A stretch of 64,000 bases of DNA from Acidobacteriota bacterium (lineage in GTDB: Bacteria; Acidobacteriota; UBA890; WLXD01), in the NCBI GenBank assembly GCA_963666055.2, contig CAXWPH010000002.1:128001-192000 (forward strand), in the 5' to 3' direction. How positions within the stretch are numbered: position 1 is the first letter of the stretch; each line of letters opens with the position of its first letter. The notes under the pieces are model-generated. The model made no database searches, was not told the DNA's origin, and saw only the letters and a list, made by a program, of their open reading frames with translations. Shown here one piece after another: positions 18,270 through 35,971 of this stretch. Position numbers and translations under genes: made by a program.

Positions 18270-18271
18270 CG

Positions 18272-18910
18272 TCAGCTCGTCTGTGGCGCCTTCAGAGCTG
18301 CCTTGCGGTTCCGGTAAAGCTGCTGGTCCACGACCGCAGCCATCGCCTCGGCGTCCAGCCCGTACTCGAGGAATTCATCGATCACGCCAACAAACCTGGC
18401 TGGATCCTCGAGCGCGTCCTTGTAGTGCACCTCGATCATCTGGAAGTTGGGGCGATCGCGCACCAGGAACTGGACCTGCACCAGATGTCGCAGGAAGAAC
18501 TGTTTCGTTTGCAGATCGTCGAGCGGATTGTCTTCGGCGCGCCGCTCGAGCATCTTGTTCTGCGATGCCACGACCTCGTCGAGGTCGCGACGCATGAAGA
18601 TCACCTTGTAGAAGTGCTCCGCCGGCAAGTCTTTGAGCAAGTGCGAGATGACCTTCAAGACCTTGCCGCGCGCCTCGCCGACCCACGACTTATCGGTCTC
18701 GCTTTCGAGGTCCTTGACGCGCTCGTGCTCGTAGTAGCCCTTGGGGTTGTCGACATCGGCGGCGCGCTCGTTGTCCGTGAGGATGGGCAGTCCGGCGGCA
18801 TCGAGCATGCGCATCATCATCGAGGTGCCGGAACGCGGTAGCCCGGACACGATGATTACCTCGTCGCCGTACTTGCGACGGCGGAGAGCTCTCTTGAGCG
18901 AAGTCAGCAA
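18272..18910 (-). CDS. Sulfotransferase-family protein
   Basis: 5'-PSB-like IVSGLPRSGTSMMMRML, NPKGYYE and IFMRRDLDEVVASQ. Start estimated at TTG 18910. Confidence 0.85.
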   Translation of the reverse strand: MLTSLKRALRRRKYGDEVIIVSGLPRSGTSMMMRMLDAAGLPILTDNERAADVDNPKGYYEHERVKDLESETDKSWVGEARGKVLKVISHLLKDLPAEHFYKVIFMRRDLDEVVASQNKMLERRAEDNPLDDLQTKQFFLRHLVQVQFLVRDRPNFQMIEVHYKDALEDPARFVGVIDEFLEYGLDAEAMAAVVDQQLYRNRKAALKAPQTS

Positions 18911-19049
18911 GGGAATCTCTCGGCACGCAGGAGTGGATGATCGGGTCATTGTAGCAAGGCGACCACTCTGGCCCTTGCGGCGCCGGCGCCCATCTTTCGC
19001 GGTGGCGGGGCACGTCAGGGACCGCATCGTTACGTGTACACTGCGGCCT

Positions 19050-20231: not shown

Positions 20232-20234
20232 GGC

Positions 20235-21011
20235 GTGGGCCCGTCGCCGACCGGGACGCTGCTGGTGGCGTTGTGCTGCAGCGCCAGCGCCACACAGGCG
20301 ACGCTGTCCATCGAGTACATCGCTCACGCCAGCTTCTTGATCGAGTCGCCGGGTGGCGCCCGCATCCTGGTGGATCCGTTCGCCAGCCGTGTGTGGATCG
20401 GCTACGACTTTCCCGAGGGCCTGCATCCCGACGCGGTCGTGATCACCCATCCGCACTATGATCACGATGCCGGGCGGTTCCGTGGCTCGCCGTTCCCGTG
20501 GCCTGAGGCGCGCATCTTCGACGCCCCCGGCGAGTTCATGGTCGACGACGTTCGCGTGATCGGGCTGCGCGGAAAGCACGCCGATCCGTACGGCGAGGAG
20601 TTCGGCCAGCGCAACACGATCTGGGTGATCGAGACGGCCGGTCTCCGAATCGCACACATCGGCGACAACGGCCCGCTGACACGCGACAACGTTCGCGATC
20701 TCGGCACCATCGACATTCTCATGTTGCCGATCGATGCCCAGTACCACATCCTGGCGCGCGAGGAGGCCGCCGCGCTCGTTACGGCGGTGCAACCACGGCA
20801 CCTGGTACCGATGCACTATCGGCTGCCGGAGCTGGAGCCGGACCCCGACTCGCCCGCTGACCTCGGCACCATCGACCCCTGGCTGCAGGGCCGCGCCGGA
20901 GTTGTGCGGCTCGGTTCCCACCGGTGGCAGGTGGGGCTCGACACGCTGCTCCCGGCCGGCAGCACGGTCGTCTTCGAGCCTTCGCCGCGGGTGGCGCGGC
21001 CAGCGCGCTAG
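20235..21011 (+). CDS. MBL-fold metallo-hydrolase (secreted)
   Basis: HASFLI, ITHPHYDHD, HIGD and VPMHY motifs, with a signal peptide. Confidence 0.88.
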   Translation: MGPSPTGTLLVALCCSASATQATLSIEYIAHASFLIESPGGARILVDPFASRVWIGYDFPEGLHPDAVVITHPHYDHDAGRFRGSPFPWPEARIFDAPGEFMVDDVRVIGLRGKHADPYGEEFGQRNTIWVIETAGLRIAHIGDNGPLTRDNVRDLGTIDILMLPIDAQYHILAREEAAALVTAVQPRHLVPMHYRLPELEPDPDSPADLGTIDPWLQGRAGVVRLGSHRWQVGLDTLLPAGSTVVFEPSPRVARPAR

Positions 21012-21094
21012 GGCATCGCCAGCGTCAGGCCGCCTTGCATCTAACCCCAGCTCGCCGAAACCAGGCCCGTCACACTTCCGCCACGGCCTGCTAG
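21008..21094. mobile_element. Truncated copy of the MITE (left arm, inverted)
   Basis: The reverse complement matches the first about 87 nt of the 17990 element and ends at its internal CTAG. Both ends are CTAG and overlap stop codons of convergent genes. Confidence 0.85.
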
Positions 21095-21822
21095 GGGTCG
21101 GAGTCGAACGGTGCTCCCAGTGCTGCCGCGAACGCGCGGATGCGGGCCGCGTTCGCTCCCAGATCACTGCGGCCGACGCGCGACGTCGAGCGTACGTCAA
21201 CTACCGACCCCGACGAGACCGGGCGGACGCGCACGACGAAATCCTCTACGAAGGCAAAAACACTCGATACCGCATAGGCCTCGATGTGGCCGTCGGCACG
21301 GTTACTGAAGGCAATGGTAAGGCCGATCTCCTCCGCTGCCCGAATGGCGGCCGCGTGAGCCGCGCCGGGGTCGAGGTCGAGCTCGATGGGTCGCAAGTCG
21401 GGATAAGCGCGTCGTTGCTCGACGATGACCTCGGCGCCGCCCTGCGGATAGGTCAAGTCGCGGCTCGCGTTATCGTCGTGGTCGAGGGCGACACGGTATG
21501 CGGGCGCATCGTCGGGTGACGTGGTGATGTCGTGAATCGGCGGCGCGTTCATCTGCAGGCGGGCGGCCACCAGCGCAATGATCAGCACTGTGCCGCCGAA
21601 GAGTCCGCGTCGGCCTGCCGCCGGCGACCGCGAATCCTTTCGTGCCCGGCGCCACGCCAGCAGGCCGAGGGCGATGCTGAGCAGGCCCCCCAGGGCCCAA
21701 GTCAGCACGAAGACTCCGAACCCGCTTAGCGGCCTGGCGGCGCCGACATGGATTGCTGCTACTGCGCCCCCCATGATGCCGACGGTAACGATGGGGGAGT
21801 ATGCTGCACTCCGCATCAACAT
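21091..21822 (-). CDS. DUF1499 domain membrane protein
   Basis: Three TMs followed by PPIHDITT, QRRAYPDL and VDVRSTSRVGRSDLGANAARIR. Confidence 0.9.
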   Translation of the reverse strand: MLMRSAAYSPIVTVGIMGGAVAAIHVGAARPLSGFGVFVLTWALGGLLSIALGLLAWRRARKDSRSPAAGRRGLFGGTVLIIALVAARLQMNAPPIHDITTSPDDAPAYRVALDHDDNASRDLTYPQGGAEVIVEQRRAYPDLRPIELDLDPGAAHAAAIRAAEEIGLTIAFSNRADGHIEAYAVSSVFAFVEDFVVRVRPVSSGSVVDVRSTSRVGRSDLGANAARIRAFAAALGAPFDSDP

Positions 21823-22030
21823 TCCTTGCTCCCGAAGTGCCGGCAGGTGCGCCGTAGATGAGTCCCAGAGACCTCATCGGCCTGCTCTCGAGCTCCTCTG
21901 AATCCGACTTCGACGAGACGGTCCGCCGGTACTGCCAGCCGGCTGTTGGGGTAGGCATCGTACAAGACCCTGTACCGGCGCAGGATGCGCACGTCCCTAC
22001 TAGGCTACTCGACTCAGGTAGACTCTCGTG

Positions 22031-22954
22031 ATGGCCGAAGATCGCAAGGAGCTCGTGGCGATCGTCGCGGCGAGGGAGGATGAGCTCGCGCCGCTGCGCG
22101 AGCGTGTGCTCGTTTCCGAGAAGATCAAAGATGGGCCCCGCTACTACCTACGGGGCACGCTGCGCGGAGTGCAGGTCGTGCTCGCGGTTACCGGCGACGG
22201 CAAGCGCAACGCCGATCTCGGAATCCGACGGTTGATCCAGATGTGCGCGCCGACGCGCGTCCTGGCTGTCGGGTTGGGAGGCGCGCTCTCGACAGACCTT
22301 GCGGTTGGCGACCTGGTGGTCTCCAGCGAAGTGATGGAGGGAGAACACACACTCGCCTGTCCGGATCTGCAGTGGCTGGAGGAAGCGTCGATTCATCTGG
22401 ATTATGACCTCGGGCGGCTGGTTACCGTCGACGAGATCTTGGCGACACCATCGAGCAAGTCGGAGTGGTACGGGCGGACATGGCGCGACCAGCCCGCTGC
22501 TGCCGACATGGAGTCCGCCTGCTTCGCCAGAGTGGCCGTAGCCTACAACCTGCCATACCTGATCGCGCGGGCTATCAGCGACGCTGCCGACGAGGTGCTA
22601 CCAGAGTTCCTCGAGGACTGCCGCGCGCAGGACGGCAGCATCGACAAGCGTCAGGTGTTTTGGAAGACGCTCTGGCGACCACGCTCGTGGGGCAACATCG
22701 TACGCTTGCGCTCGCGCATGCGGCGGTGCGCTAGCACGCTGGCCGATTTCGCCGAAGGGATTGGTTGCTGCGTTAGCCTAGCTGCGTTCCCCTCACTGGG
22801 CGCGTTGCCAGCGTCCGCCATTGACATGCCCCGAGGTGTCAAGGACACTCGGAACCCTATGCCCTCAGTGCGGTGCGCTGGTCTTGAACGCGGCGCGCCT
22901 GCCTCTTGTGCGTCGCCGTTGCCGGCGCCGATGCCGCGTTGCGAGTACGCATGA
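22031..22954 (+). CDS. Nucleoside phosphorylase/MTA-SAH nucleosidase fold protein (HpnG-like) with a suspicious C-terminal extension
   Basis: TGDGKRNA, GLGGALS..LAVGDLVV, AADMESA and RAISDAADEVLP motifs. The last about 60 aa look non-homologous. Confidence 0.75.
   Translation: MAEDRKELVAIVAAREDELAPLRERVLVSEKIKDGPRYYLRGTLRGVQVVLAVTGDGKRNADLGIRRLIQMCAPTRVLAVGLGGALSTDLAVGDLVVSSEVMEGEHTLACPDLQWLEEASIHLDYDLGRLVTVDEILATPSSKSEWYGRTWRDQPAAADMESACFARVAVAYNLPYLIARAISDAADEVLPEFLEDCRAQDGSIDKRQVFWKTLWRPRSWGNIVRLRSRMRRCASTLADFAEGIGCCVSLAAFPSLGALPASAIDMPRGVKDTRNPMPSVRCAGLERGAPASCASPLPAPMPRCEYA
22821..22849 (+). promoter_or_regulatory. Sigma70-like promoter with an overlapping palindrome, upstream of the mevalonate operon
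   Basis: TTGACA (22821-22826), a 17-bp spacer, then GACACT (22844-22849). TTGACA-N10-TGTCAA forms a palindrome. Confidence 0.5.
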
Positions 22955-23997
22955 GCAGTACCGACTCACCGGCCGCCAAGCCACCGGCCGAGCGCGACCG
23001 CAAAGCCGAGCACATCCAGCTGGCGCTCGAAGAGCGTATGCAGCACGGCAGTCGCGGCTTCGACGCTTGGCGGCTCGAGCATTGCGCCCTTCCCGAGCTC
23101 GACCTGGCCGAGGTCGACCTCAGCACCGAATTCCTCGGCAAGCAGCTGGCGGCGCCGCTCCTTATCTCCTGCATGACCGGTGGCACCGCTGACGCGGCCC
23201 GAATCAACCGCAACTTGGCCATCGGCGCCGAGCGGGCCGGTGTTGCGGTTGGCGTGGGGTCGCAGCGCAAGGCGCTGGAGGATCCTACGCTCCAAGCCAC
23301 CTTCCAGGTTCGTGAGTACGCTCCCACGGTCCCCCTGCTGGCCAATCTAGGGGCGGTGCAATTGAACTGCGGGTACGGCGTCGCCGAGTGCCGGGCGGCC
23401 GTTCATATGATCGATGCCGACGCTCTCGTGTTGCACCTGAACCCTCTGCAGGAGGCGATTCAGCCCGAGGGCGATGTCAACTTCGCCAACCTGTTGCCGA
23501 AGATCGGCGCGATTGTTGGTCAACTCGAGGTACCGGTCATCGTCAAGGAGATCGGCATGGGCATATCGCTGTCGGTGGCCGAGCGCCTCGCTGAAGCCGG
23601 CGTCCGTATCATCGACACTGCGGGGCATGGGGGCACCAACTGGGCGCGCATCGAAGCGCAGCGTGCCGACGACCTCGAGCTCGGTGCGACGTTCGCCGAG
23701 TGGGGAATTCCAACGCCCGACAGCATCCGCGCCGTCGCCAGCGTGCCGGGAGTCACCGTCATTGGCAGCGGCGGGGTCCGTACTGGAATCGACGTGGCCA
23801 AGGCGGTAGCGCTCGGCGCTGACATGGTCGGCCTGGCGTATCCGTTCCTCAAAGCGGCGCTGGAGTCAGCCGCTGCCGTCGTGGCGCGGATCGACCGTAC
23901 CTTGACGGAGCTCAGGGTGTCGATGTTCTGCGCCGGCATCCGTACAGTGGCCGATCTGCGTGCCGCAAGTCTGATCGAGCGAGCGACTCGGCGATGA
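22951..23997 (+). CDS. fni: Type 2 isopentenyl-diphosphate delta-isomerase (FMN)
   Basis: RKAEHI, APLLISCMTGG, GVGSQR, HLNPLQEAIQPEGD, GGTNW and EWGIPT motifs. Confidence 0.96.
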   Translation: MSSTDSPAAKPPAERDRKAEHIQLALEERMQHGSRGFDAWRLEHCALPELDLAEVDLSTEFLGKQLAAPLLISCMTGGTADAARINRNLAIGAERAGVAVGVGSQRKALEDPTLQATFQVREYAPTVPLLANLGAVQLNCGYGVAECRAAVHMIDADALVLHLNPLQEAIQPEGDVNFANLLPKIGAIVGQLEVPVIVKEIGMGISLSVAERLAEAGVRIIDTAGHGGTNWARIEAQRADDLELGATFAEWGIPTPDSIRAVASVPGVTVIGSGGVRTGIDVAKAVALGADMVGLAYPFLKAALESAAAVVARIDRTLTELRVSMFCAGIRTVADLRAASLIERATRR

Positions 23998-25247
23998 CTG
24001 ACGCTGCCGAGCCGGTCGACCAGGGCACCCTCGTAGACGAGATCGTAGCCGGCACCCGGCGCTTCCATCACCTGCCGTCCGAGCTCGGCGCCGCTGAGGC
24101 TGCGGCCATTCGACGACAGGCGCTCGAGCGCCTGGCCGGAGTAAATCTGACACATACCGGCAAGTACTCATTCGACGCCGCGCGCGCCGCCGACAGCCAT
24201 TGCGAGAATCTGATCGGTGTGACGCAGGTGCCGGTCGGTGTAGCAGGGCCACTACTCGTGCGGGGTGATTATATCGACGGTGAGGTCTACGTCCCTCTGG
24301 CTACGACGGAGGGAGCGCTCGTCGCCAGCATTAACCGGGGCTGTGCGGCCATCCGCGCGGCCGGCGGGGCCGCCGTGTACGTGGAGGACGTCGGCATGAC
24401 CCGGGCGCCGGTGTTTCGCTCCAGCGGGCTGGCGCAGACACGTGAGTTCCTCCGCTGGGTTACCGACAACGAGGATGAGATCCGCTCCGTGGCAGAGGGC
24501 ACGAGCCGCTTCCTGCAGCTGGTGGATATCCGCCCCTATGCTTTCGGTACCACGATCTTCCTGCGCTTCAGGTTTCGCTCGGGCGATGCCATGGGAATGA
24601 ACATGGCAACCATCGCCTGCGATCAGCTAGTGCGCGAGTTGATCGAGCCGGCGACCGGGGTACCCTGCGTTGCTCTTTCCGGAAACTACTGTACCGACAA
24701 GAAACCCGCGGCGATCAACTTCCAGGAAGGCCGCGGCAAGCGCATACACGCGCAGGTCAGACTCGACGCCGATGTGCTGGCGCGCCTGAAGACGAGCGCG
24801 GCCGAGCTGCTCGAGGTGCAGTATCGCAAGAACCTGCTGGGCTCGATTGCTGCCGGTTCGATAGGTTTCAATGCCCACGTCGCCAACGTTCTCGCGGCGG
24901 TGTTTCTCGCTACTGGACAGGATCCGGCGCATGTAGTGGAAGGGTCGATGGGAATCACCTCTATCGAGCCTGGCGACGAGGGTGGCGTGGTGGCATCGAT
25001 GTACCTGCCTGCTGTTCCGCTGGCGGCGATCGGCGGTGGTACTGCGCTCGACACACAACGCGAGGCGCTTGCTGTGCTCGGCGTTGCTGCAGAGCCGGAC
25101 CGGCCTGGTGTCGCGGTGCTGCGATTAGCCGAGATCCTCGGCGCCGCCGTCCTCGCAGGCGAGCTGTCGTTGCTGGCCGCTCTTACCTCTCAGGACCTCG
25201 CCGGCGCCCACAAGCGGCTGGGGCGGCGCGCCCGGCCCGGCAGCTAG
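23994..25247 (+). CDS. hmgA: Class I (archaeal-like, NADPH) HMG-CoA reductase
   Basis: ENLIG, PLATTEGALVASINRG, MTRAPVF, GDAMGMNM, SGNYCTDKKP, ATGQDPAHVVE and a C-terminal catalytic His (AHKRLGR). Confidence 0.96.
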   Translation: MTDAAEPVDQGTLVDEIVAGTRRFHHLPSELGAAEAAAIRRQALERLAGVNLTHTGKYSFDAARAADSHCENLIGVTQVPVGVAGPLLVRGDYIDGEVYVPLATTEGALVASINRGCAAIRAAGGAAVYVEDVGMTRAPVFRSSGLAQTREFLRWVTDNEDEIRSVAEGTSRFLQLVDIRPYAFGTTIFLRFRFRSGDAMGMNMATIACDQLVRELIEPATGVPCVALSGNYCTDKKPAAINFQEGRGKRIHAQVRLDADVLARLKTSAAELLEVQYRKNLLGSIAAGSIGFNAHVANVLAAVFLATGQDPAHVVEGSMGITSIEPGDEGGVVASMYLPAVPLAAIGGGTALDTQREALAVLGVAAEPDRPGVAVLRLAEILGAAVLAGELSLLAALTSQDLAGAHKRLGRRARPGS

Positions 25248-25258
25248 ACGGTCGCCTG

Positions 25259-26377
25259 ATGGAAGCGGCGCGGTTGCCCGAAGGGCGCTTGCTGACGCGC
25301 GTCTCGACGCCTGGAAAGCTCATCCTCATGGGCGAACATGCGGTCGTCTACGGTCGGCCGGCGCTGGTGGCGGCCACTAGCCTGCGCCTACGGGTCTACC
25401 TATACCGCGCACAGCGGGCCGGCGTGGAAGTGGAGTTGCCGGAGCTCCAGTTCCAAAACCACGTTTCTTGGCAAGAGATCTGGCGCTATGCGAGCCGAAT
25501 GCGGCAGCGGTGGGACCGCTACGACACGAGCCTGACGCCGGAGGTGTTCGCTCGCCTTCAGGACGACCGCCCCGACCGGTTGGTGCTGCTGGCACTGGGC
25601 GAGGCAATCACGGCGCTCGGTGAGGATCCCGGCGCGAAGGACCATCCGCTGAGCGCGCTGCGGCTTCGGGTGGACTCGGCGGTCCCAATGGAGGTCGGCT
25701 TTGGGAGCTCCGCCGCCACCGCCGTGGCAGTGGTAACAGCGGTTTGTGCGCTCTCTGGTAAGGCGGAGAGGTGGTCACTGATTGGGCCGATCGTGGGCGA
25801 GGTGGAGCGCCGGCAGCATGGCGCGCCGTCTGGGGTGGATGTCGCGGCCGTGTTTCACGGCGGTGTGTTGCGCGCTCGCCGCGGCGGCGAAGAGCTATTG
25901 ATCGAGCCGCTGGCGGCGCGCCCTGACACCCTGCAGCGGCTGCGGGTGTTCGACACGGGTCGCTCGGCCGAGCCGACCGGCGCGGTGGTCGCGGCAGTAC
26001 GGGCGCAACACGACCGCCACCCAGCCAGCTTCGAGGCGTCGCTGGACGCTGCCGAATCCGCAACCCGGGCCTTCCAGGACGCGGTTACCGCATCAGCTGA
26101 CCAGATCGACCTGGTGCCACCGATCCGCGATGCTCAGCGCTACCTGGAGTCTCTCGGTGTGGTGCCCGAGCCAGTATGCGACGCCGTCCGCGCTGTCGAA
26201 GCTCTGGGCGGCGCCGCCAAGATCTCCGGTTCGGGTTCGCTCGCGGGGCCAGGGGCCGGCTCTTTGTTGGTATTGTTGCCTGCTGGGATCGAGAATCTCC
26301 CAGAGCCGCTGGCGAGGCTTCCGGAGCACGAAGTGTCGCTGGGCGCGGAGGGTGTGCGCGTAGAGGTGGCGTCATGA
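25259..26377 (+). CDS. mvk: Mevalonate kinase
   Basis: PGKLILMGEHAVVYG, GHMP loop PMEVGFGSSAA, HGAPSGVD and AKISGSG. Confidence 0.92.
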   Translation: MEAARLPEGRLLTRVSTPGKLILMGEHAVVYGRPALVAATSLRLRVYLYRAQRAGVEVELPELQFQNHVSWQEIWRYASRMRQRWDRYDTSLTPEVFARLQDDRPDRLVLLALGEAITALGEDPGAKDHPLSALRLRVDSAVPMEVGFGSSAATAVAVVTAVCALSGKAERWSLIGPIVGEVERRQHGAPSGVDVAAVFHGGVLRARRGGEELLIEPLAARPDTLQRLRVFDTGRSAEPTGAVVAAVRAQHDRHPASFEASLDAAESATRAFQDAVTASADQIDLVPPIRDAQRYLESLGVVPEPVCDAVRAVEALGGAAKISGSGSLAGPGAGSLLVLLPAGIENLPEPLARLPEHEVSLGAEGVRVEVAS

Positions 26378-27399
26378 GCCGCAGCGCCACCGTCGAAGCA
26401 CCCTCCAATATCGCGTTTGTGAAGTACTGGGGTGCCGCTGACCTGGAGAAGGCCATCCCGCTCAACGCTTCGATCTCGATGTCGTTGCGGGCGTGCGTCA
26501 CACGGACGAGCGTCGAGACGCTCGCGGCCGGCGCCGACGACCAGATCTGGATGCGCGTCGACGGCCAATGGCGTCGCGCCGAAGGAGCGTTCCGGCATCG
26601 CGCAGCGGCACATCTGGAAGGTCTGCGGCGTTGGGCCAAAGTCGACGTGGGCTTTCGGGTCGCTACCGAGAACAGCTTTCCTGCCGCCGCCGGTATCGCC
26701 TCGTCGGCTTCCGGCTTCGCCGCCCTCACCCTGGCGGTGCTGGCGGCGCTCGAGCGGGAGCCGGCAGGTGATGAGCTATCGAATTTGGCGCGGTTGTCTG
26801 GCTCAGGCTCCGCGTCGCGGTCGGTTTTCGGCGGCTACGTGCAGTGGCCGCACGGCGACGAGGCAGACCCGTGGCGCGCCGCACCGCTGGCGACGGCCTC
26901 GCATTGGGACCTGCGCGACGTAATCGCGATTGTGCAAACCGGTCCCAAGGCGGTGTCGTCTCTCGAGGGGCACGCCCGGGCCCCCACCAGCCCCCATTTC
27001 GCACGCCGGCAGGAGCTCATCCCGTCGCGTCTTCAACGGGTGCGCGACGCCATCGAGGCGCGCGACCTGGACCAACTCGGTCCGGTCGTCGAGGAAGACG
27101 CGATTGAGCTCCACCTGGTAGCGATGTCCTCGCAGCCTCCGATCTTCTACTGGCAGCCGGCGACGCTTCGCGTGCTGCACCACGTTCGCACCCTGCGGAG
27201 CGGTGGAACGTCGGCGTGGGCAACAATGGACGCCGGAGCTAACGTGCATGTGATTTGCTCCGCCGACGACGAGGCAGACGTCGCCGCCGGGTTGGAAGCG
27301 CTCGATGGTGTCCAGAGTGTGATCCGCGACGGCGTGGGCTCGGGACCACGGACCCTGCCGGTATCGCTGCTCGATGCTCTGGATCGAGCGCAGCCATGA
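26374..27399 (+). CDS. mvaD: MVD-family decarboxylase (probably phosphomevalonate decarboxylase)
   Basis: NIAFVKYWG, NSFPAAAGIASSASGFAAL, GSGSASRS and TMDAGANVHVI motifs. ATGA overlap with mvk. Confidence 0.93.
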   Translation: MSRSATVEAPSNIAFVKYWGAADLEKAIPLNASISMSLRACVTRTSVETLAAGADDQIWMRVDGQWRRAEGAFRHRAAAHLEGLRRWAKVDVGFRVATENSFPAAAGIASSASGFAALTLAVLAALEREPAGDELSNLARLSGSGSASRSVFGGYVQWPHGDEADPWRAAPLATASHWDLRDVIAIVQTGPKAVSSLEGHARAPTSPHFARRQELIPSRLQRVRDAIEARDLDQLGPVVEEDAIELHLVAMSSQPPIFYWQPATLRVLHHVRTLRSGGTSAWATMDAGANVHVICSADDEADVAAGLEALDGVQSVIRDGVGSGPRTLPVSLLDALDRAQP

Positions 27400-28196
27400 A
27401 CGACCTGGTGGTAGTCAAGCTCGGTGGCAGCTTGATCACGAACAAGCGCCGCCATCGAACGGTGAGGCGGGCTGAGCTTTCGCGACTCGCCGGCGAGATC
27501 GCGGCGCTCACCCGCCGCTTTGGATTCCCGATGCTGTTAGGGCACGGTAGTGGGTCCTTTGGGCACGTGGCGGCAGCGGAGTCAGGCGTTCACGACGGGA
27601 TGGCCGGGCGTCGTGCGCGGGTCGGTGTGTCGCAGACGCAGGCTGCAGCTGCAGAGCTGCACGCGATCGTGATGAGCGCTCTGCGCGATGCCGGTGTGGC
27701 TGCCTACTCGGTGGCGCCGTCGAGCGCTATTGTCGCCAGAGGCCCCGGTCTTCGGCCGAGCGTGCACCTGGAGCCGGTGCTCCGAGCGCTCGACAGTGGG
27801 CTGCTACCCGTTACGTATGGCGACATCGTCATGGACCGGCAACGTGGCTGCTCGATTTGCTCGACCGAAATGGCGCTGCTGGCGTTCGTTCGCTCGCTAC
27901 GCTCGTCAAATCGGCGTGTCTCCGACGCCATCTGGCTCGGAGACACCGACGGCATTCTGGATGCGGCTGGGGTGAGCGTTACTCGCGTCCGCTTGCGAGA
28001 CGCCAGGCGCGTCCGCCGCCTGGTGAGTGGCGCGGCCGCGACCGACGTGACCGGCGGCATGCGCCATCGGTTCGAGGCGGCGTTGGCGCTGGCCCGCATT
28101 GGCGTACGGTCCTATCTGCTCGATGGCCGTCGACCGGGCATCCTGCGACGTGCGCTGCGGGGCACCGCGGTGCCGGGGACAATCGTCGAGCGTTGA
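27396..28196 (+). CDS. ipk: Isopentenyl phosphate kinase
   Basis: VVKLGGSLITNK, HGSGSFGH (IPK signature His), PVTYGD, ICSTE and DVTGGM motifs. Confidence 0.92.
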   Translation: MNDLVVVKLGGSLITNKRRHRTVRRAELSRLAGEIAALTRRFGFPMLLGHGSGSFGHVAAAESGVHDGMAGRRARVGVSQTQAAAAELHAIVMSALRDAGVAAYSVAPSSAIVARGPGLRPSVHLEPVLRALDSGLLPVTYGDIVMDRQRGCSICSTEMALLAFVRSLRSSNRRVSDAIWLGDTDGILDAAGVSVTRVRLRDARRVRRLVSGAAATDVTGGMRHRFEAALALARIGVRSYLLDGRRPGILRRALRGTAVPGTIVER

Positions 28197-28276
28197 CCGG
28201 CGGCGGCTTCGTTGCCTGGGCCGCGCCCCCGCCAGGGTGGATAATGGACCTCGGCCAGCCAAAGCCAGGCGCACGC

Positions 28277-29197
28277 ATGGACCGCATCGAAGACCTTCTC
28301 GAGAAGACCAGCCGCACGTTCGCGCTATCGATCCCGTTGCTGCCGGAGCCGACCCGCCGCGAGCTTGGCATCGCCTACCTGCTGTTCCGCATTGCGGACA
28401 CCTTCGAGGACGCGTCGCAATGGGACCGACAGCAGCGCATCGATGCCCTCGAAGAGTTCATGAGCCTGGTTCGAGATCCGGACGAGCAGCGCGCCGCCGA
28501 GCTGGGACGTAGGTGGGCCGCCTCCGTACCGATTGACCATCCCGGCTATCTCGAGCTACTCGGCGAATCCGCAACCGTGATCCGGGAATACCAGCGTCTG
28601 CGACCTGACGCACGGGAGATCATCCGTGAGCACACGTTGCGGACCGTTGCTGGCATGTCCGGATTCGTCAAGCGCTCTGTCGATGGCGTGCTCAAGCTCG
28701 AGTCTCTCGCTGACTTGCGCGAGTACTGTTACGTGGTTGCCGGTATCGTCGGTGAGCTCAGCACTGATCTGTTCCTCCTCGAGCGCCCCCAGCTGGCGTC
28801 GTCGATCGAGTTCTTGCGACAGCGCGCTGCGCGGTTTGGCGAGGCGCTGCAACTGGTCAACATCCTCAAGGATGCCGCCACCGACCGGCGTGAGGGTCGG
28901 CGTTACCTGCCTGCAGCGTTGAAGCGCAAGGAGATCTTCCGGTTGGCCCGCGAAGACCTCCGAGTAGCAGCCCATTACACCAACGCACTGCAGGCGGCGG
29001 GTGCGCCGCGCGGCATCGTCGCGTTCTGCGCGCTACCTACACGGCTGGCCGTCGTCGCCCTCGACATCGTCGAGCGGTGCGGGCCCGGCGCGAAGATCTC
29101 ACGCCAAGACGTTGCCGACATCGTCGAGGCCCTGAACCTAGATCTCGACGTCGGTGCTCCCGCGGTGGCGATTCCAGCAACCGCGAAACCGACGTGA
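28277..29197 (+). CDS. Squalene/phytoene synthase family, single-enzyme squalene synthase type
   Basis: TSRTFALSI, YLLFRIADTFED, YCYVVAGIVG and LQLVNILKD...D..EGR.YLP motifs. Confidence 0.9.
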   Translation: MDRIEDLLEKTSRTFALSIPLLPEPTRRELGIAYLLFRIADTFEDASQWDRQQRIDALEEFMSLVRDPDEQRAAELGRRWAASVPIDHPGYLELLGESATVIREYQRLRPDAREIIREHTLRTVAGMSGFVKRSVDGVLKLESLADLREYCYVVAGIVGELSTDLFLLERPQLASSIEFLRQRAARFGEALQLVNILKDAATDRREGRRYLPAALKRKEIFRLAREDLRVAAHYTNALQAAGAPRGIVAFCALPTRLAVVALDIVERCGPGAKISRQDVADIVEALNLDLDVGAPAVAIPATAKPT

Positions 29198-29226
29198 CCA
29201 AGCCGGTGTCCGGCGCTGCTCCGAGA

Positions 29227-30048
29227 TCACTTTTCGGCACCTTCGGGGTTAGCTCTCTTGGCGCGGTCGATCCAGGCGTCGGCGTCCGGATGGCCCCGTT
29301 GCTGCCATTCCCGGGCTCGATCCATAGTCCGCCGATAGGCGTCGCGGCTTGCCGCGGCGTCGTCGACTTCGGCGTAGGCCTCGGCTAGCGCGAGGAGGTT
29401 GGGGGGGTACTCGGGGTAGAGCTCGACTGCGCGTCGCGCCTGCTCCAGGCCCTCGTCCGCGTCTCCGGGACCGGTGGGCCAGCCGGGCGCTTGCACCAGC
29501 ATTTGCGACAACACGCGCCGAGGTCCCGCGTAGTCGAGACGTTCGTGCCCGGCGATGGCAGCACGGAGCTCGCGTTCCATCGTGCGTAGCCCGTCCGAAG
29601 CCGTGGCGCGACGCTGGTTGGCTTGTACGCCGACGGCGATCGCCAGCCAGTAGTGGCAGTCCGGGTTCGTTGGCTCGCGCCTTCGGCACCACTGGGCCGT
29701 TTGCACTGCCTCGGTGGCCTTGTCCTTACGAGCCTGCGGATCGTCCAAATGCTCCCCGAGCCAGGTCTGTGCCCTCACGGCACCGATGATTGCCAGTGCG
29801 CTCGACGGACGGGCGATGGCGGATCGGATCCAGAGGGCCTCGGCCTGACGCACCGCGTCGACCTTGGGGCGTAGCCCGAACGCTTCCTCGGCGGCGGTAG
29901 CCAGACGGGCAGCCTCCTCCTCGTCGATGCGTTCCGGATCGACGCGGCCGAGCGCCGAGCTCGTGTCGAGCGGCTGGAGCGCAGCGACACACGCGGACGA
30001 AGCGAGAGCTGCGGCTGCCAGTAAGGCGGCGGATCGACGAAGGCTCAT
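29227..30048 (-). CDS. TPR/TatT-like lipoprotein (BstC-like)
   Basis: Lipobox LASSA-C and a helical body with CHYWLAIAVG, DYAGPRRVL and QAPGWPTGPGD. Confidence 0.75.
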   Translation of the reverse strand: MSLRRSAALLAAAALASSACVAALQPLDTSSALGRVDPERIDEEEAARLATAAEEAFGLRPKVDAVRQAEALWIRSAIARPSSALAIIGAVRAQTWLGEHLDDPQARKDKATEAVQTAQWCRRREPTNPDCHYWLAIAVGVQANQRRATASDGLRTMERELRAAIAGHERLDYAGPRRVLSQMLVQAPGWPTGPGDADEGLEQARRAVELYPEYPPNLLALAEAYAEVDDAAASRDAYRRTMDRAREWQQRGHPDADAWIDRAKRANPEGAEK

Positions 30049-30938
30049 CGAGCCGCCGAGTACGCCGCCCGGGCAAGGTCCAGCGCCTCGGCGTCCAGGG
30101 CTTCGAAGCGCTCTAGTCGCATGGTTTCGAGCACGTCAGCGAAGCTCGCCGACTGGTGGATGCCGAGCAGCCCGTGGACTAACTGCCGACGCACCGGCTC
30201 GTCGACGCGGTCGCCCACGACGACGACGAGCCAGGCCAAGAGAGGCGGTGACGTCGCCACCACCTCGAGCGACTCCGCGCCCGGAAACGAAGCCAACGCG
30301 GCAGTCTGGTTGCCATCGAGAAGTACGGCAACTTCCTCGCCGGCGGCCACACGCCGTATGCCGGCAAGGACCCGCCGTGTGAACTTGACGGAAAGCGAAT
30401 CCGGCAGCTCCCCCCAATGCGCCAGTGCCGGCCCGCGTACGAAACCGGGTGCGTATGCCGGAATGCCTAGTAGCTCCCAGCCGGAGAGCGAGGCGGGCCC
30501 GGTGACCGCTCCGGCGAAAGCCACCAGGCTCCAGCGCTCGGTGGCGCTCCCGGACGCCTGTACCGCCTGCACCACCGCCGTGAGCACCAGCTCCTGCTCG
30601 TACTTCAGATATAGCGGTAGTGGCACCAACGCCAGCGACGTGGCGTGGTCGCGTAGACGGCCTACCCCGGCTTCCTCGCTCGGATGGTATTCGGCCGTCA
30701 AGGTCCCGGTCGGCCACCCTGAGGCGTCCGAGACCATCGCTGCGAAGTCGTTCATCGTCGGCTGCGCCTGCTCGGTGTTGCTCGGATACCCTGGCGCGCA
30801 GGCCACCAGCCGCAGAGTCTCCAGGTCGGCGGATACGCCAGCCTGACTCCCACCGCCTGCCGTCGTCGCAGCTGCCGTCGTCGCACAAAGCGCCACCGCG
30901 AAGAGAAGCTTGTTCATCGTCGGCGCAGAATCGTTCAT
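30045..30938 (-). CDS. Periplasmic PhnD/phosphonate-binding-like protein (BstB-like)
   Basis: Signal peptide, CAPGYP and SBP-like alpha/beta pattern. Coupled by a 4-bp overlap to the lipoprotein. Confidence 0.65.
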   Translation of the reverse strand: MNDSAPTMNKLLFAVALCATTAAATTAGGGSQAGVSADLETLRLVACAPGYPSNTEQAQPTMNDFAAMVSDASGWPTGTLTAEYHPSEEAGVGRLRDHATSLALVPLPLYLKYEQELVLTAVVQAVQASGSATERWSLVAFAGAVTGPASLSGWELLGIPAYAPGFVRGPALAHWGELPDSLSVKFTRRVLAGIRRVAAGEEVAVLLDGNQTAALASFPGAESLEVVATSPPLLAWLVVVVGDRVDEPVRRQLVHGLLGIHQSASFADVLETMRLERFEALDAEALDLARAAYSAAR

Positions 30939-30984
30939 CGTGGGGAGGGTTGTCAGTATTCTTCGAAAGAATACCTGCCACCTG

Positions 30985-33678
30985 TCAACGGCGCGCGATC
31001 CCGCTCACGATCAACAGGTTCGGCAGCACGATCAAGGCGGCGACAGTGCAAGCGCCCACCCCTAGCAGCAGTACGACCCCAAGGCTCGCCATGCCGCGGT
31101 GTGTAGCAAACACGAGGCTTCCGAATCCCACCATGGTCGTAAGCGAAGCGATGAGGATCGCCCGCCCGGTATGCGAAACGACCGTCATGATGCCGGCGCC
31201 GCCCTCTAGTCGCAGTCGGTGGACGATGTGTACTCCGGCATCGATGCCGACTCCCAGGACGATCGGCACCGCCACCAGGTTGGCGAAATTAAACGACAGA
31301 CCGAGCGCCCACATGAGTCCGAGCATCCATACCGTCCCGAAGAAAACCGGGACGAGGGCGAGAGCCGTGTGCCGCGCGTTGCGCAGATCCAGCAGCAGCA
31401 CCAGGAACACGACCAACGCGGCGCTCGCGAATGCTAGCCCGAACCCCGAGGTGATCAAGGCAGAGTGGGTTTCGAAGAGCACCGGAAAGCCGATGGCGTC
31501 GTTGGCGACGCGGCGCGACGCGAAGTTGAACTGTCGCAGGAAGCGGGTGTCATAAATATCGCCTGCCGGGAACAGATAGCCAACGTATCGGTCGTCCTCG
31601 GTGATGAATCGATCGACGATGTCTGAAGGCAAGGATGCTCGGGTCGGGAGCGGCACGCCGGCGGCGTCGCGCAGCTGCTGTAGGACGCTGAACGCCTCGA
31701 GGCGCAGGGCCTCCTGTGCCTCGGCCCACTCGGCGATCCGCTCGCGGCTCGCCGCGATCGTTAGCTCGATGGCTCTTGCGGTCACCTGACGGGCCTCTTC
31801 CAAGGCTCCGGACACCCCTCCCAGCCCGGCAACGAAAGCGTCGTCGGCGGCGATGGCCAAGGCAGACTCTAGTCGCGACAGCGAGTCACTCAGGCGGCGG
31901 CCGTCGAACGCCGCCTCGCCCACCTCGATGACTTCCAGAGTCCGGCGGAGGCGCGCCGCGGCGGCCTCCGACGCCAACGGTTGATCGGGCAGGAATGCGA
32001 GTACCGATTCGAACCGGCGGATGCTGGCCTCGCTCTCGGCGCGCCGACGTAGCGCGCGGAGCTGTTCCAGATCGTCGGCAACGACGAGGTTGAAGTCGTG
32101 GCTGAGCGCCGACTCGTCGTTGATGATCTGCAGATAGCGGATTGACTCGGAGCCTGCCGGGAGAAGCTCTAACAGGCTCGATTCCAGCTTCACGCGGCTC
32201 GCTGCGAGCCCGGCGATCGCGGTCAGGCCGATCGCCAGCGCGACGACTAGGCTCGGTGACGCGCAAACCCAACGGGCTGCCCGATCGTCCCAGATCTGGT
32301 CGACGGCGGCAGGTGCGGCGGCGTTGTCGTCTTCGCGGCTGCCGCGCAACAACAGCAGCGCCGGTAGCACCAGCAGGGCGGCAAGCAGGCAGAGCAGCAC
32401 GCCGACGCTGGTGACCAGGCCCAGCTGGGAAAAACCACGGAAGTCCATGAGCAGCAGACAGGCAAAGACCGCCGAGGTGGTGAACGCCGACGCGACGACT
32501 GCGGCACTTGTCTTTCGAAGCGCGGCGCGCACCGCCTCCCGTCGCCCTTTGTGCTGCCGTTCGAGCTCGTACTGCGATAGGGGGTGCACTGCGTAGTCGA
32601 TACCCATGCCGACGAGAATGGGGATCAGGGCCGCGGTGATGATGTTGAGCGACCCAATCTCGAGCTGCACCGCGCCGATCGACCAAATCACTCCGGCCGC
32701 CCGGGTCGCCAAACCGAGCAGAGCGTGGCGCCGCCGGCGGAACACCAGCAACGAGATTCCGAGTACGCCGACGATAGCGATCAACGAAGTGCGGCGGGTG
32801 TCTCGTCCTATGGCGTTCATTTCTTCCACGGCCATGGCGACAGGACCGGTGAGTCCGTAGCGAACGCCTGGATGCTCCGACAATACGGAGGTGACGGCCA
32901 CGCGGACGCTATCCACCAGCGTTCGCTGCGCTTCCAGGCTGCTATCCAGGTTCGCGGGGCTGACCAGTACGAACAAAACGCGCTCATCACTGGTCGACAG
33001 GTAGCCATCAGCGGTCAGCGATCCGCGCCGCCCGCTGTCGATCAGCCTCAGCGGCGCCTGCTTCAGCCGATCGACGAACCCATGAGGGTCGCTGAGGAAG
33101 TCGCGCTCGGCGTCGACGAGCGCGAGGAGCCGGGTGGCTGCTACGGCAGCATCGTCCGACCGCAAGACGCTGCCGGATTCGAGTGAATCCTCGACGCCAG
33201 TGGCAATGCGTACGTTCAGGTTGGCCCAGCTAGTCAGGGTCAGCGTGCCATCGACAGCAAGCAGCCCCTGCAACATCTCGAACGCCTGCTCGACCATGTC
33301 CGCCGGCGCCAAGGCAAGCGCATGATCGGCAAGCCATTCCAAGTCGATGCGGTAGAACACGCTACGTACCTGCGAGTCTGCCTGTAGGCGCTCGGCGATC
33401 TCTCGCGCCGTGGTCTCCAGCTCTTCAACCGATGCGCCGCTCGCGCTTGCCTCGAGCGCGACAATGAGCGGCTCAGCGCTGGCGAACTGGGAGCGCAGCG
33501 AGTTCCATCGCGCCTGGTCCACGTCGTCTTGTGGCACCAGCTCCTGTCGCGAGGTCAGGAACTCGATTCCCGTTCCCAGCCAAATGGAGATAGCGCACAG
33601 TGCCACAGCGATGGTCAGCACGGCGCGTGGATGGTCCAGAACCAACGATTCGGCGCGCTTGAGCACAGGGCGTATCAT
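30985..33678 (-). CDS. RND/MMPL lipid transporter (HpnN/BstA-like)
   Basis: 897 aa with two TM blocks carrying ILVGMGIDYAVH and LGVGIDAGVHIVHR, plus GLTGP and TTMVGFGSL. Confidence 0.92.
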   Translation of the reverse strand: MIRPVLKRAESLVLDHPRAVLTIAVALCAISIWLGTGIEFLTSRQELVPQDDVDQARWNSLRSQFASAEPLIVALEASASGASVEELETTAREIAERLQADSQVRSVFYRIDLEWLADHALALAPADMVEQAFEMLQGLLAVDGTLTLTSWANLNVRIATGVEDSLESGSVLRSDDAAVAATRLLALVDAERDFLSDPHGFVDRLKQAPLRLIDSGRRGSLTADGYLSTSDERVLFVLVSPANLDSSLEAQRTLVDSVRVAVTSVLSEHPGVRYGLTGPVAMAVEEMNAIGRDTRRTSLIAIVGVLGISLLVFRRRRHALLGLATRAAGVIWSIGAVQLEIGSLNIITAALIPILVGMGIDYAVHPLSQYELERQHKGRREAVRAALRKTSAAVVASAFTTSAVFACLLLMDFRGFSQLGLVTSVGVLLCLLAALLVLPALLLLRGSREDDNAAAPAAVDQIWDDRAARWVCASPSLVVALAIGLTAIAGLAASRVKLESSLLELLPAGSESIRYLQIINDESALSHDFNLVVADDLEQLRALRRRAESEASIRRFESVLAFLPDQPLASEAAAARLRRTLEVIEVGEAAFDGRRLSDSLSRLESALAIAADDAFVAGLGGVSGALEEARQVTARAIELTIAASRERIAEWAEAQEALRLEAFSVLQQLRDAAGVPLPTRASLPSDIVDRFITEDDRYVGYLFPAGDIYDTRFLRQFNFASRRVANDAIGFPVLFETHSALITSGFGLAFASAALVVFLVLLLDLRNARHTALALVPVFFGTVWMLGLMWALGLSFNFANLVAVPIVLGVGIDAGVHIVHRLRLEGGAGIMTVVSHTGRAILIASLTTMVGFGSLVFATHRGMASLGVVLLLGVGACTVAALIVLPNLLIVSGIARR

Positions 33679-33810: not shown

Positions 33811-34770
33811 GTGAAGTCGCTGATTCTCACCCAGTCTGATATTCGCTCCGTGGTGAAGATGAGCGCCGTGGTACCCGCGATCGAGACGGCGTTCGAGGCG
33901 CATGGGCGCGGCGACACACAGATGCCGGTGAAGGTCTACCTCGATCTGCCTGAGCACCATGGCGACTTCCGGGCCATGCCCGCCTACATGGATGGATCGG
34001 CGGGGGTGAAGTGGGTCAACTCGCACCCGCGGAACCCGGAGGACCACGGGTTGCCGTCGGTTCTCGGCATGTACATTCTCAGCGACCCGTCCACTGCTGT
34101 GCCGCTGGCGGTCATGGATGCAACGCTGCTGACTGCGCTGCGCACCGGCGCGGCGGCGGCTGTCGCTGCCAAGCACCTGGCGCGGCCGGATGCCCGCAGC
34201 GTCGGCTTCGTCGGTTGTGGCGTGCAGGCGCGTACCATGCTCGACGCGCTACGCGTTGTCTTGGACGGCCTGCAGGTCGTGGCTGCCGATCAGAACCCCG
34301 ACGCGGCGGCTACTTTCGCCACTGAGATTGGCGGAATTGTCGGCGACGTGGCGGCTGCAGCAGCCTGCGACATCGTTTGCACCGCAACGCCTTCGCGCAC
34401 CCCGATCGTGCGTCACGAGTGGGTGAAGCCGGGTACGCACATCAACGCCATGGGTGCCGATGCGCACGGCAAGCAGGAGCTCGAGTCCAGCCTGATGGCG
34501 GCTGCCAAGGTAGTCATTGACGACTGGCAGCAGGCCTGTGCGAGTGGCGAGGTGAACGTGCCCTTGCAGGAAGGCTCGCTCGCTCGAGACGACATTCACG
34601 CCGCCCTGGGGGAGATTGTGGCGAGGTTGGCGCCGGGTCGTGAGACCGATGCCGAGATTACCGTGTTCGATTCCACCGGGCTCGCCGTACAAGACGTCGC
34701 GTTGGCGCGCCTAATATACGAGCAGGCCCGCGCCGCCGGGGTCGGTCTGGAGGTCGATTTTCTCGCCTAG
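33811..34770 (+). CDS. Ornithine cyclodeaminase/mu-crystallin family (archaeal-type alanine dehydrogenase-like)
   Basis: MPVKVYL..GDFRAMPAY..AGVKWVNSHP, LRTGAA, GCGVQA, HINAMGAD and FDSTGLAVQD motifs. Confidence 0.9.
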   Translation: MKSLILTQSDIRSVVKMSAVVPAIETAFEAHGRGDTQMPVKVYLDLPEHHGDFRAMPAYMDGSAGVKWVNSHPRNPEDHGLPSVLGMYILSDPSTAVPLAVMDATLLTALRTGAAAAVAAKHLARPDARSVGFVGCGVQARTMLDALRVVLDGLQVVAADQNPDAAATFATEIGGIVGDVAAAAACDIVCTATPSRTPIVRHEWVKPGTHINAMGADAHGKQELESSLMAAAKVVIDDWQQACASGEVNVPLQEGSLARDDIHAALGEIVARLAPGRETDAEITVFDSTGLAVQDVALARLIYEQARAAGVGLEVDFLA

Positions 34771-34846
34771 TCGCCTGTGCCAGTGGTGGAGGCCGGCCGT
34801 ACGGGTGGACCCGGCGCGTACCCAAACGAGTGAAGGAGCGATGGCC

Positions 34847-35971
34847 ATGAAGACGCGCGGATTTCAACAGACCAGCTGGTGGTTTACCCTGTTGCTGGTC
34901 GTCGCCACGGCATGCGTGCCGACGACCGTCGCTGCTCCGGCAGCGATGCAGTACGCGCAGCTGCATCACTCCGAGTACGGAGCCGCGATCGAGGCTGCGC
35001 GCGCTGTTGTTCAGGAGCGCCTGCTCGAGTACCCCGGACTGTCGATCGCCGTTGGAATCGACGACCGGATCGTCTGGGCAGAGGGATTCGGCTGGGCCGA
35101 TATCGAGCAGTGTGTTCCGGTGCGACCCACGTCTCGGTTTCGCGTCGGCAGCGTCGCCAAGCCGATGACCGCGTCGCTTCTCGGCCTGCTCTACGAGGAA
35201 GGCAAGATCGACCTCGACGCGCCGGTGCAGACATACGTGCGGACGTTTCCAGAGAAGAGCCACCCGATCTCTACGCGCCTGCTCGCCGGGCACCTGGCCG
35301 GCATTCGCGACTACGAAGGCGACGAGTTCTTCAGCGCCGTTCGCTACGACACCGTGTCGGAAGGGCTGGAAATCTTCGCTGCCGACCCGTTGCGGTTCGA
35401 GCCGAGCAGCGAGTACTTGTACTCGAGCTACGGATGGAACCTGATCAGCGCCATCATCGAGGGTGCGAGCGGCGAGGAGTTTCTACCGCAAATGCAGAGC
35501 CGCGTATTCGAGCCGCTTGGCATGCTCGACACAACTTCGGATCAGAATGCCTTGATTGTCCGCGAGCGGGTCCGACCTTATGAGCGCGGGGATGACGGAC
35601 TCCTGTACAACGCCCCTCATGTCGACAACAGTTACAAGTGGGCCGGCGGGGGGTTTCTCTCTACTGCACAGGACCTCGTGCGCTTCGGCATGGCGCACAT
35701 GAAGCCCGGCTTCTTGCAGATGGCGACCCTGCAGGAGTGGCAGACGTCACAACGAACGAACGATGGCCTGGAGACCGGCTACGGAATGGGCTGGAGCGTT
35801 GGCACGGACGCGTCGGGCCGCCGAAGCGTCGGTCACGGCGGCGGCTCGGTGGGCGGAACCACCGGGCTCATGCTGCTGCCGGATGACGGCTTGGTGATTG
35901 CCGTCACCAGCAACATGAGCGGCGCGCCGGGTTTTCCCACTCAGGAAATTGTCGATCTGTTCCTGCAGTAG
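34847..35971 (+). CDS. Serine hydrolase, beta-lactamase family (class C/LACTB-like)
   Basis: SxxK (GSVAKP), YSSYGW, NSYKWAGGG and GHGGG motifs, with a signal peptide. Confidence 0.9.
   Translation: MKTRGFQQTSWWFTLLLVVATACVPTTVAAPAAMQYAQLHHSEYGAAIEAARAVVQERLLEYPGLSIAVGIDDRIVWAEGFGWADIEQCVPVRPTSRFRVGSVAKPMTASLLGLLYEEGKIDLDAPVQTYVRTFPEKSHPISTRLLAGHLAGIRDYEGDEFFSAVRYDTVSEGLEIFAADPLRFEPSSEYLYSSYGWNLISAIIEGASGEEFLPQMQSRVFEPLGMLDTTSDQNALIVRERVRPYERGDDGLLYNAPHVDNSYKWAGGGFLSTAQDLVRFGMAHMKPGFLQMATLQEWQTSQRTNDGLETGYGMGWSVGTDASGRRSVGHGGGSVGGTTGLMLLPDDGLVIAVTSNMSGAPGFPTQEIVDLFLQ

Follow-up and report, generated by a model that had tools for sequence, protein, structure and literature searches.

A truncated hopanoid operon, probably a source of uncyclised squalene, faces a BstABC-like transporter trio in an Acidobacteriota genome

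Ten converging genes

The stretch of DNA analysed here (the window: 64,000 nucleotides, G000:C2:128001-192000) comes from an Acidobacteriota source genome, G000, whose assembly of 5.73 Mb in 15 contigs is rated 95.7% complete; G001 upward are other Acidobacteriota genomes, C numbers are contigs and L numbers are fetched loci. Within the window, seven genes on the plus strand run from an hpnG-like gene through a set of mevalonate-pathway genes to a squalene synthase gene, sqs, and meet tail to tail three genes on the minus strand, for a transporter, a periplasmic binding protein and a lipoprotein that resemble BstABC of M. capsulatus (Table 1). We interpret the locus as a truncated hopanoid operon that quite probably makes uncyclised squalene. 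The genes, their positions, order and orientations, and the close tail-to-tail meeting are as the first-pass annotation of this DNA had described them. Five of the nine gene junctions are 4-base overlaps, the GC content is flat along the whole window, and a scan for promoters and terminators gave nothing exceeding shuffled sequence.

The region was retrieved for nine of ten relatives in the family (G010, 77% complete, gave no match). Gene order and convergence are complete in six of these nine (G001-G005 and G007); in G006 a 7 kb insertion separates sqs from bstC, and in G008 and G009 the arrangement is partly seen, on short contigs. Because the same order and convergence recur in relatives, the arrangement is not due to chance. 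The linkage of the two operons is conserved over the family, and the convergent layout is retained in five genera. The named relatives of the lipoprotein (four loci) are Acidobacteriota metagenome-assembled genomes.

Table 1. Features of the locus: positions in the window, strand, and profile scores in bits with their cut-offs
Feature	Position	Strand	Evidence and remarks
Gap upstream of hpnG	21823..22030		208 bp; position of shc-hpnH-(hpnA) in relatives keeping those genes
HpnG-like purine nucleosidase/phosphorylase, MTAN fold	22031..22954	+	TIGR03468 95 (cut-off 187), NF004079 94; both below cut-off
fni, type 2 isopentenyl diphosphate (IPP) isomerase	22951..23997	+	TIGR02151 396 (cut-off 281)
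hmgA, class I NADPH HMG-CoA reductase	23994..25247	+	TIGR00533 445 (cut-off 442)
mvk, mevalonate kinase-like GHMP kinase	25259..26377	+	TIGR00549 136, below cut-off 163
mvaD, phosphomevalonate decarboxylase (PMD) type	26374..27399	+	TIGR01240 225 (cut-off 171)
ipk, isopentenyl phosphate kinase (IPK)	27396..28196	+	NF040647 149 (cut-off 120); top PDB matches are IPKs
sqs, single-enzyme squalene synthase (Sqs/FdfT type)	28277..29197	+	PF00494; TIGR01559 93 (cut-off 287)
Gap between converging stop codons	29198..29226		29 bp; no terminator-like site in scan
BstC-like TPR lipoprotein, lipobox Cys20	29227..30048	-	NF045602 BstC 83 (cut-off 350)
BstB-like periplasmic binding protein	30045..30938	-	NF045601 BstB 63 (cut-off 350); PF12974
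MMPL/RND transporter	30985..33678	-	NF045600 BstA 359 (cut-off 1400); TIGR03480 HpnN 366 (cut-off 752)

Both flanks are conserved in the family. On the left (window 17181-21822) lie HAD hydrolase, sulfotransferase-like, FIST-domain, metallo-beta-lactamase-fold and DUF1499 genes, and on the right (window 33811-35971) an alanine dehydrogenase/ornithine cyclodeaminase gene and one for a beta-lactamase-fold serine hydrolase that scores below all resistance cut-offs.

The ancestral operon and the loss of its front

Judged by gene order in the relatives, the ancestral operon is shc-hpnH-(hpnA)-hpnG-fni-hmgA-mvk-pmd-ipk-sqs. Within the family, G008 has shc-hpnH-hpnA-hpnG-fni, with the first three genes above their cut-offs and a squalene-hopene cyclase (SHC) that bears a DCDD motif and scores 737 bits against TIGR01507 (cut-off 431); on a second short contig its sqs faces bstC-bstB-bstA. 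G005 reads shc-hpnH-transposase-hpnG-fni and onward to sqs facing the trio, with an in-frame TAG near the start of shc in the assembly sequence. Transposase genes occupy the shc site in G007, the front genes are missing from G001-G004 and G006, and the contig of G009 stops short of the site. The order shc-hpnH-(hpnA)-hpnG-fni-hmgA-mvk-mvaD-ipk was also found in three other families (G109, G276 and G132), sqs being next after ipk in the first two. Relatives of the operon that use the methylerythritol phosphate (MEP) pathway, G178 and G223, have shc-hpnH-hpnA-hpnG-(fni)-sqs-dxs and so end with dxs instead of mevalonate genes, while G076 has sqs-dxs alone, without shc.

The gap upstream of hpnG would be the site from which shc-hpnH-hpnA was deleted. 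Contigs from three sequencing runs (X1, X3 and X4) cover window positions 19500-24842 with 0-1 differences and bridge this junction, which is therefore not an assembly error. The gene abutting hpnG in L172 (L172:2042-3142) is the counterpart of the gene divergent from shc in G005 (L036:7905-9185); it has no NCBIfam match in either, is sulfotransferase-like by eye, and marks the deletion boundary. The hpnG alignment found 13 metagenome loci, two of them copies of G001 and G006 and two showing too little upstream sequence. Among the 13, hpnA precedes hpnG only in L175, a close relative of G007 whose HpnG shares 86% identity with the G007 protein.

The loss of the cyclase looks repeated within the group. 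The front genes are cleanly lost in genera g1 and g3, which are joined in FastTree trees that place G005 at the base of the family. G007 is the sister of G008 in the operon tree and not in the trio tree; because the two trees disagree on this genome, the family is taken to have had one or two losses in addition to the G005 stop codon, L175 favouring two.

The ratio of nonsynonymous to synonymous substitution (dN/dS) was estimated by the simple Nei-Gojobori method, which saturates beyond the genus, with G000 and G001 as the main pair. This pair gave 0.08 for sqs (95% 0.05-0.13), 0.06 for hpnG, 0.19 for bstA, 0.24 for bstB, 0.16 for bstC and 0.09-0.20 across the mevalonate genes, and no bootstrap interval reached 0.33. 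Three other within-genus pairs gave 0.04-0.32 for the same genes, the bstB of G003 (split over two matches) being omitted. By these ratios a decaying relic locus is ruled out, and sqs, hpnG and the trio are maintained by purifying selection. A lesion in the bstC of G005 was not counted as a gene break because it lies upstream of an intact lipobox.

The hpnG-like gene has outlived the neighbors with which it would have worked. It is syntenic with the hpnG of intact operons, whose products likewise fall below the TIGR03468 cut-off, and its product retains the MTAN catalytic Glu, MES and R-x-x-x-D. Immediately ahead of the ancestral stop (window 22760-22954), one inserted base, confirmed by contigs from the three sequencing runs, lengthens the protein by ~57 residues relative to G002, so that the gene overlaps the fni start. 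As HpnH is missing, no adenosylhopane substrate would be available to the enzyme. G000 has a futalosine menaquinone cluster (L160/L159, G000:C15:948586-959319) with MqnE, an MqnC-like gene and two PF02621 genes, and no MqnB within it. Of its five PF01048 gene products, two are MTAN-like and have a hydrophobic N-terminus; the others are a purine nucleoside phosphorylase, an MTA phosphorylase and the HpnG-like protein, and none of the five reaches the MqnB cut-off. As a hypothesis, the HpnG-like enzyme has likely been retained for general cleavage of adenine nucleosides, for instance in the futalosine route to menaquinone.

Isoprenoid supply, squalene synthase and the search for a cyclase

The closest solved relative of MvaD is 6N0X (E 8e-63). 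The structure 6N0Z, which we take to be a specificity-switch mutant of 6N0X, departs from it at two positions, with Lys at 20 and Met at 194; MvaD keeps the His at position 194 and has Ala, not Lys, at position 20. 6N0X is the phosphomevalonate decarboxylase of A. thermophila, and PMD specificity has been changed by mutagenesis (PMC9254496). The alternative mevalonate route proposed in the first-pass annotation is borne out by this PMD-type MvaD together with IPK, and only its label needs amending: the pathway is better called haloarchaea/Chloroflexi-type than "archaeal-type". It shares with that pathway a single mevalonate kinase, a PMD-type decarboxylase and IPK, and tblastn of G000 with the window's mvk as sole query found no second kinase or phosphomevalonate kinase; it differs in occurring in Acidobacteriota and in being placed inside a hopanoid operon.

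The MEP genes tested (dxr, ispG and dxs) are absent from G000, and dxr was found in none of 11 family genomes. An HMG-CoA synthase-like gene lies on contig C11 (TIGR01835 249 bits, below the cut-off of 360), and the farnesyl diphosphate (FPP) synthase gene, ispA, on C1, flanked by xseB-like and tlyA-like genes (names assigned by reading the sequences) with no dxs in between. Given the missing dxr, ispG and dxs and the lack of a dxs beside the FPP synthase gene, the mevalonate operon is very likely the cell's only isoprenoid route. In the pathway that we propose, HMG-CoA from the synthase on C11 would be reduced to mevalonate and phosphorylated by Mvk; decarboxylation by PMD would yield isopentenyl phosphate, which IPK would convert to IPP and Fni would isomerise; IspA would make FPP, and Sqs would couple two FPP to squalene. 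With the MEP pathway gone, the route would also have to feed menaquinone and undecaprenol, and this demand suffices to account for the retention of the mevalonate genes. In another Acidobacteriota family, G064 (L118:7267-10912) carries UbiD-family, aconitase X-like, DUF126 and ipk genes consecutively, near fni and an mvk-like gene, that is, genes of the archaeal dehydratase/decarboxylase mevalonate route.

The sqs gene is the sole PF00494 gene (squalene/phytoene-synthase family) of G000. The top PDB matches of its product are squalene synthases, and the flap, DTFED, catalytic Tyr and NILKD are retained, so that the catalytic motifs are as in the human and fungal enzymes; an invariant K-x-x-R lies near the C-terminus. 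The flap, acidic, Tyr and VKIRK motifs of human squalene synthase were taken from PMC10378455, and GAKISR of Sqs was matched to the basic motif VKIRK by position and judgement, beyond the HMMER alignment. The same Sqs clade is the only PF00494 gene, inside the shc operon, in G109, G276, G178 and G223, and must therefore supply squalene there. The predicted reaction of Sqs is the conversion of FPP to squalene with NADPH.

Neither SHC nor oxidosqualene cyclase (OSC) was found in G000. PF13243 and TIGR01787 gave only two weak partial matches, to proteins of ~420 and ~230 amino acids without DXDD, a motif present in all nine full cyclases checked in a 61-genome sample. Searches of G000 by tblastn with the relatives' SHC, OSC, squalene epoxidase, HpnD and HpnE gave no match, one for HpnH gave only a match of 23% identity (E 8e-5), and PF08491 (squalene epoxidase) had no matches; among sterol genes, OSC and epoxidase were thus not found, no search being made for SdmA. 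The only P450 of G000 consists of fragments over short frames among insertion-sequence genes. Across the 11 family genomes, Sqs occurs in 10 and a BstB-like protein in 10, while a full cyclase occurs in two (G005 and G008), the same two that have HpnH. No cyclase was found in G004 or G007, assemblies of two contigs each that are 96-97% complete. An assembly gap hiding shc is ruled out by the bridged junction and by the missing cyclase in these two assemblies, and a sterol pathway in G000 by the missing OSC, SHC and squalene epoxidase. The first-pass annotation had proposed synthesis of a cyclic triterpenoid, possibly a sterol, and that proposal fails on the evidence it had itself named: a 95.7% complete genome lacks cyclase and epoxidase, and the only cyclases of the family are SHCs encoded, with hpnH, directly upstream of hpnG.

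The longer of the two weak matches is a single-barrel QW-repeat protein (L002:484-1746, G000:C6:241883-243145) with paralogues on C15; these proteins have CxxCH and no DXDD. Each of the five g1 genomes has 2-4 copies, and none was found in the family's four remaining genera, so that a family-wide replacement cyclase is ruled out.

The sterol scenario fits another genus, g117, which has epoxidase, OSC and BstB/C-like genes. G169 (L104, G169:C37:29445-32779) encodes a squalene epoxidase and an OSC with a DCTAE motif, and G276 (L110, G276:C22:9114-12440) an epoxidase-OSC fusion, one protein of 1108 amino acids with the same motif. G276 also holds the full shc-mevalonate-sqs operon, G169 has fni onward to sqs without hpn genes, and both carry BstB/C-like genes.

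The transporter trio and its cargo

Homology searches and fold comparison indicate that the trio is a true homologue of M. capsulatus BstABC, as the first-pass annotation had held. 7T1M (BstB) is the only PDB match of the BstB-like protein (E 6e-10), and 7T1S (BstC) is the best match of the lipoprotein by sequence (E 2e-16) and by fold (E 2e-8; predicted model with pLDDT 91). The RND protein is about equally HpnN-like and BstA-like, with a PDB match to HpnN at E 4e-41. Because all three fall far below the Bst cut-offs, they are treated as BstABC-like in working and not filed as members. The search with the BstB alignment returned 187 homologous proteins, almost none of them named, and the BstB-like protein had no plasmid match.

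BstABC is described as the sterol transporter of sterol-making methanotrophs (PMC10942540; 7T1M, 7T1S). As in that system, an RND protein, a binding protein and a TPR lipoprotein run beside triterpene synthesis genes, and the APxWP loop and the Glu86 position are retained in the window proteins; unlike it, identity is ~26% for BstC, G000 has neither osc nor smo, and Trp stands at the position of BstB Tyr120, a residue described as dispensable (PMC11713862). With the hopanoid operon and its transporter HpnN the locus shares hpnG, squalene synthase and an HpnN-like RND protein, and in relatives the complete operon occupies this very site. It differs in that shc, hpnH and hpnA are deleted, squalene would come from one Sqs and not from HpnCDE, and the RND protein has BstB/C-like partners. 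Elsewhere in the phylum, the neighbours of shc include bstA-like and bstB-like genes in G027 and a distant bstC-like gene in G132.

The reading that we favour, with a probability of about 0.5, is that uncyclised squalene is the product of the locus and the cargo of the trio. The RND protein would lift the lipid from the inner membrane, the binding protein would shuttle it through the periplasm and the lipoprotein would receive it at the outer membrane, as has been proposed for BstABC (PMC10942540). Squalene would act as an apolar membrane modifier replacing hopanoids; membrane modification by squalene-type hydrocarbons is mentioned in PMC9907078. The cargo is predicted to be squalene or another lipid; it could not be a home-made sterol, since the genome has no OSC or squalene epoxidase. 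The distribution of the trio across the phylum is in keeping with this. Among 301 Acidobacteriota genomes, each at least 90% complete, 110 match the BstC profile at E 1e-8, and 31 form a close BstC-like tier (E <1e-70; next genome 9e-28). A PF00494 gene is present in 30 of these 31 vs 153 of the 270 others, which include the unpublished G047, and a cyclase in 7 of 31 vs 52 of 270; the close BstC-like group tracks the PF00494 gene, not the cyclase. HpnE was above its cut-off beside HpnC/HpnD in all five cyclase-less trio genomes tested.

Several observations weigh against squalene as the cargo. The co-occurrence was counted over kin, the tier was cut post hoc at the score gap from E 5e-72 to 9e-28, and PF00494 also takes in phytoene synthases; a PF00494 gene also occurs in ~100 sampled genomes that have no cyclase and fall outside the close BstC group, and G142 has bstABC and no PF00494 gene. 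Sqs itself falls far below its TIGR01559 cut-off, at a score that still exceeds those against HpnD (59) and HpnC (42). The trio adjoins sqs in this family alone: in all 22 genomes outside it bstB adjoins bstC away from sqs, ten having a co-oriented BstA-like gene, six a divergent other MMPL gene and six none in the stretch. In 11 of the 22, bstBC is followed by genes for an fn3 protein (~740 amino acids) and an outer-membrane barrel (~1000 amino acids, PF25183; loci L047, L088-L093, L096, L097, L099 and L100), an arrangement that looks like uptake. Moreover, BstC Glu86 binds the sterol hydroxyl (PMC10942540), and its position corresponds, by alignment and residue table, to Glu99 of the BstC-like protein, which is kept in seven cyclase-less genomes of g1 and g3; this points to a hydroxylated ligand, since squalene lacks a polar head. 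Squalene binding by BstA or BstB is not among the Bst findings in the portions of the Bst literature available to us.

These points lead to the chief alternative, which we regard as possible and less probable than transport of squalene: squalene is made, and the trio handles another, polar-headed lipid, either a host or environmental sterol or hopanoid or the cell's own fatty acid or polyprenol. An imported sterol or hopanoid would then stand in for the lost hopanoids, and the place of the trio beside sqs would be inherited from a hopanoid-making ancestor. In keeping with this, members that have long been without a cyclase retain the Glu86-equivalent, and N, H or R takes its place in G005, G008 and G007, although Glu or Asp is common at this position across the group regardless of cyclase state. 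Outside the family, the fn3 and barrel genes follow bstBC in 11 of 16 cyclase-less genomes and in none of the six with a cyclase. In G031, G049 and G064 (L050:2816-10793, L051 and L095), which have no cyclase, bstABC stands beside genes for a FadL-like porin (its identity tested in G031 only), an SdmB/HpnA-like dehydrogenase and a steroid 5-alpha-reductase-family protein, possibly a locus of sterol uptake and modification. Both contexts suggest uptake of an outside lipid, and long-chain fatty acids are ligands of the BstC-related TatT proteins (PMC11713862). Neither the steroid reductase nor the fn3 protein has a match in G000, however, and the close tracking of PF00494 genes by the trio and the convergence retained across genera weigh against this alternative.

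The remaining explanations concern the product. An unrecognised cyclase among the single-barrel QW-repeat proteins (on C6 and C15) could make a cyclic triterpenoid: they match PF13243/TIGR01787 weakly, resemble proteins of Planctomycetota and Verrucomicrobiota clusters with SQHop_cyclase_C, and monodomain class II cyclases exist (MstE, PMC12324236). We consider this unlikely, given that the proteins, of ~420 amino acids, have neither DXDD nor DCTAE and no linkage to the locus, and that none was found in the six family genomes outside g1, including the cyclase-less g3 and g4. Desaturation of squalene to C30 carotenoids, with the trio moving the pigment, appears slightly less probable still. Sqs can feed C30 carotenoid synthesis (PMC9907078) and G000 has ten PF01593 matches; yet none of the eight proteins tested reaches a carotenoid-enzyme cut-off (crtI family maximum 132 of 238, with no CrtN-specific profile run), one is a protoporphyrinogen oxidase, and five of the genes (two pairs and one single) have aminomethyltransferase-like or other flavoprotein genes as neighbours and lie away from sqs. 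That a sterol or hopanoid is made after all, its cyclase falling in the unassembled 4% of the genome, is very improbable. The assembly is in 15 contigs, and sterol genes do occur in the phylum with the same mevalonate operon and BstB/C-like genes (G169 and G276). Against this, the cyclase is missing from all five genomes of the genus and from nine of 11 in the family, two-contig assemblies included; the ancestral shc site is internal to a contig and bridged; and HpnH, HpnA and epoxidase are missing as well, with the lone P450 in pieces.

The first-pass annotation knew of no description of this combination, which is correct in part. An acidobacterial SD22 genome that has mevalonate genes instead of MEP genes, together with one squalene synthase, shc and hpnH, has been reported (Sinninghe Damste et al. 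2017, PMC5462960), along with SD6 genomes able to make squalene without shc. The SD22 genome differs from G000 in keeping shc and hpnH, and the terms "hpnN" and "transport" do not occur in the available text of that paper, which leaves the transporter link uncovered. The spread of Sqs and HpnCDE, the carotenoid route, cyclase clades and the sterol genes of certain acidobacteria are treated in PMC7306690, PMC9907078, PMC12324236 and PMC10202945. In the literature searched, which excluded most subscription papers, we found nothing on a Bst-like trio in cyclase-less genomes, though the supplements of the cited surveys may list genomes of this family.

Because Bst homologues are maintained in cyclase-less genomes, a Bst-like annotation is no sign of sterol synthesis. 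A wider proposal, which we hold to be rather doubtful, is that Bst-type trios form a broader bacterial family for triterpene trafficking, with acyclic squalene as the basic cargo and hopanoid or sterol transport as special cases in cyclase-bearing genomes, and that several marine Acidobacteriota lineages dropped the cyclase independently and build a squalene-modified outer membrane; if true, this would amount to archaea-like membrane tuning by squalene with a dedicated transporter. Within the family shc is found intact, interrupted by a stop, recently lost and long lost, which forms a natural series for comparing the ligands of the same binding proteins. Through this series the fate of squalene in bacteria with a squalene synthase and no cyclase could be tested, as could a change of cargo in a hopanoid or sterol carrier, and the results would help to tell from which Acidobacteriota hopanoid biomarkers could derive.

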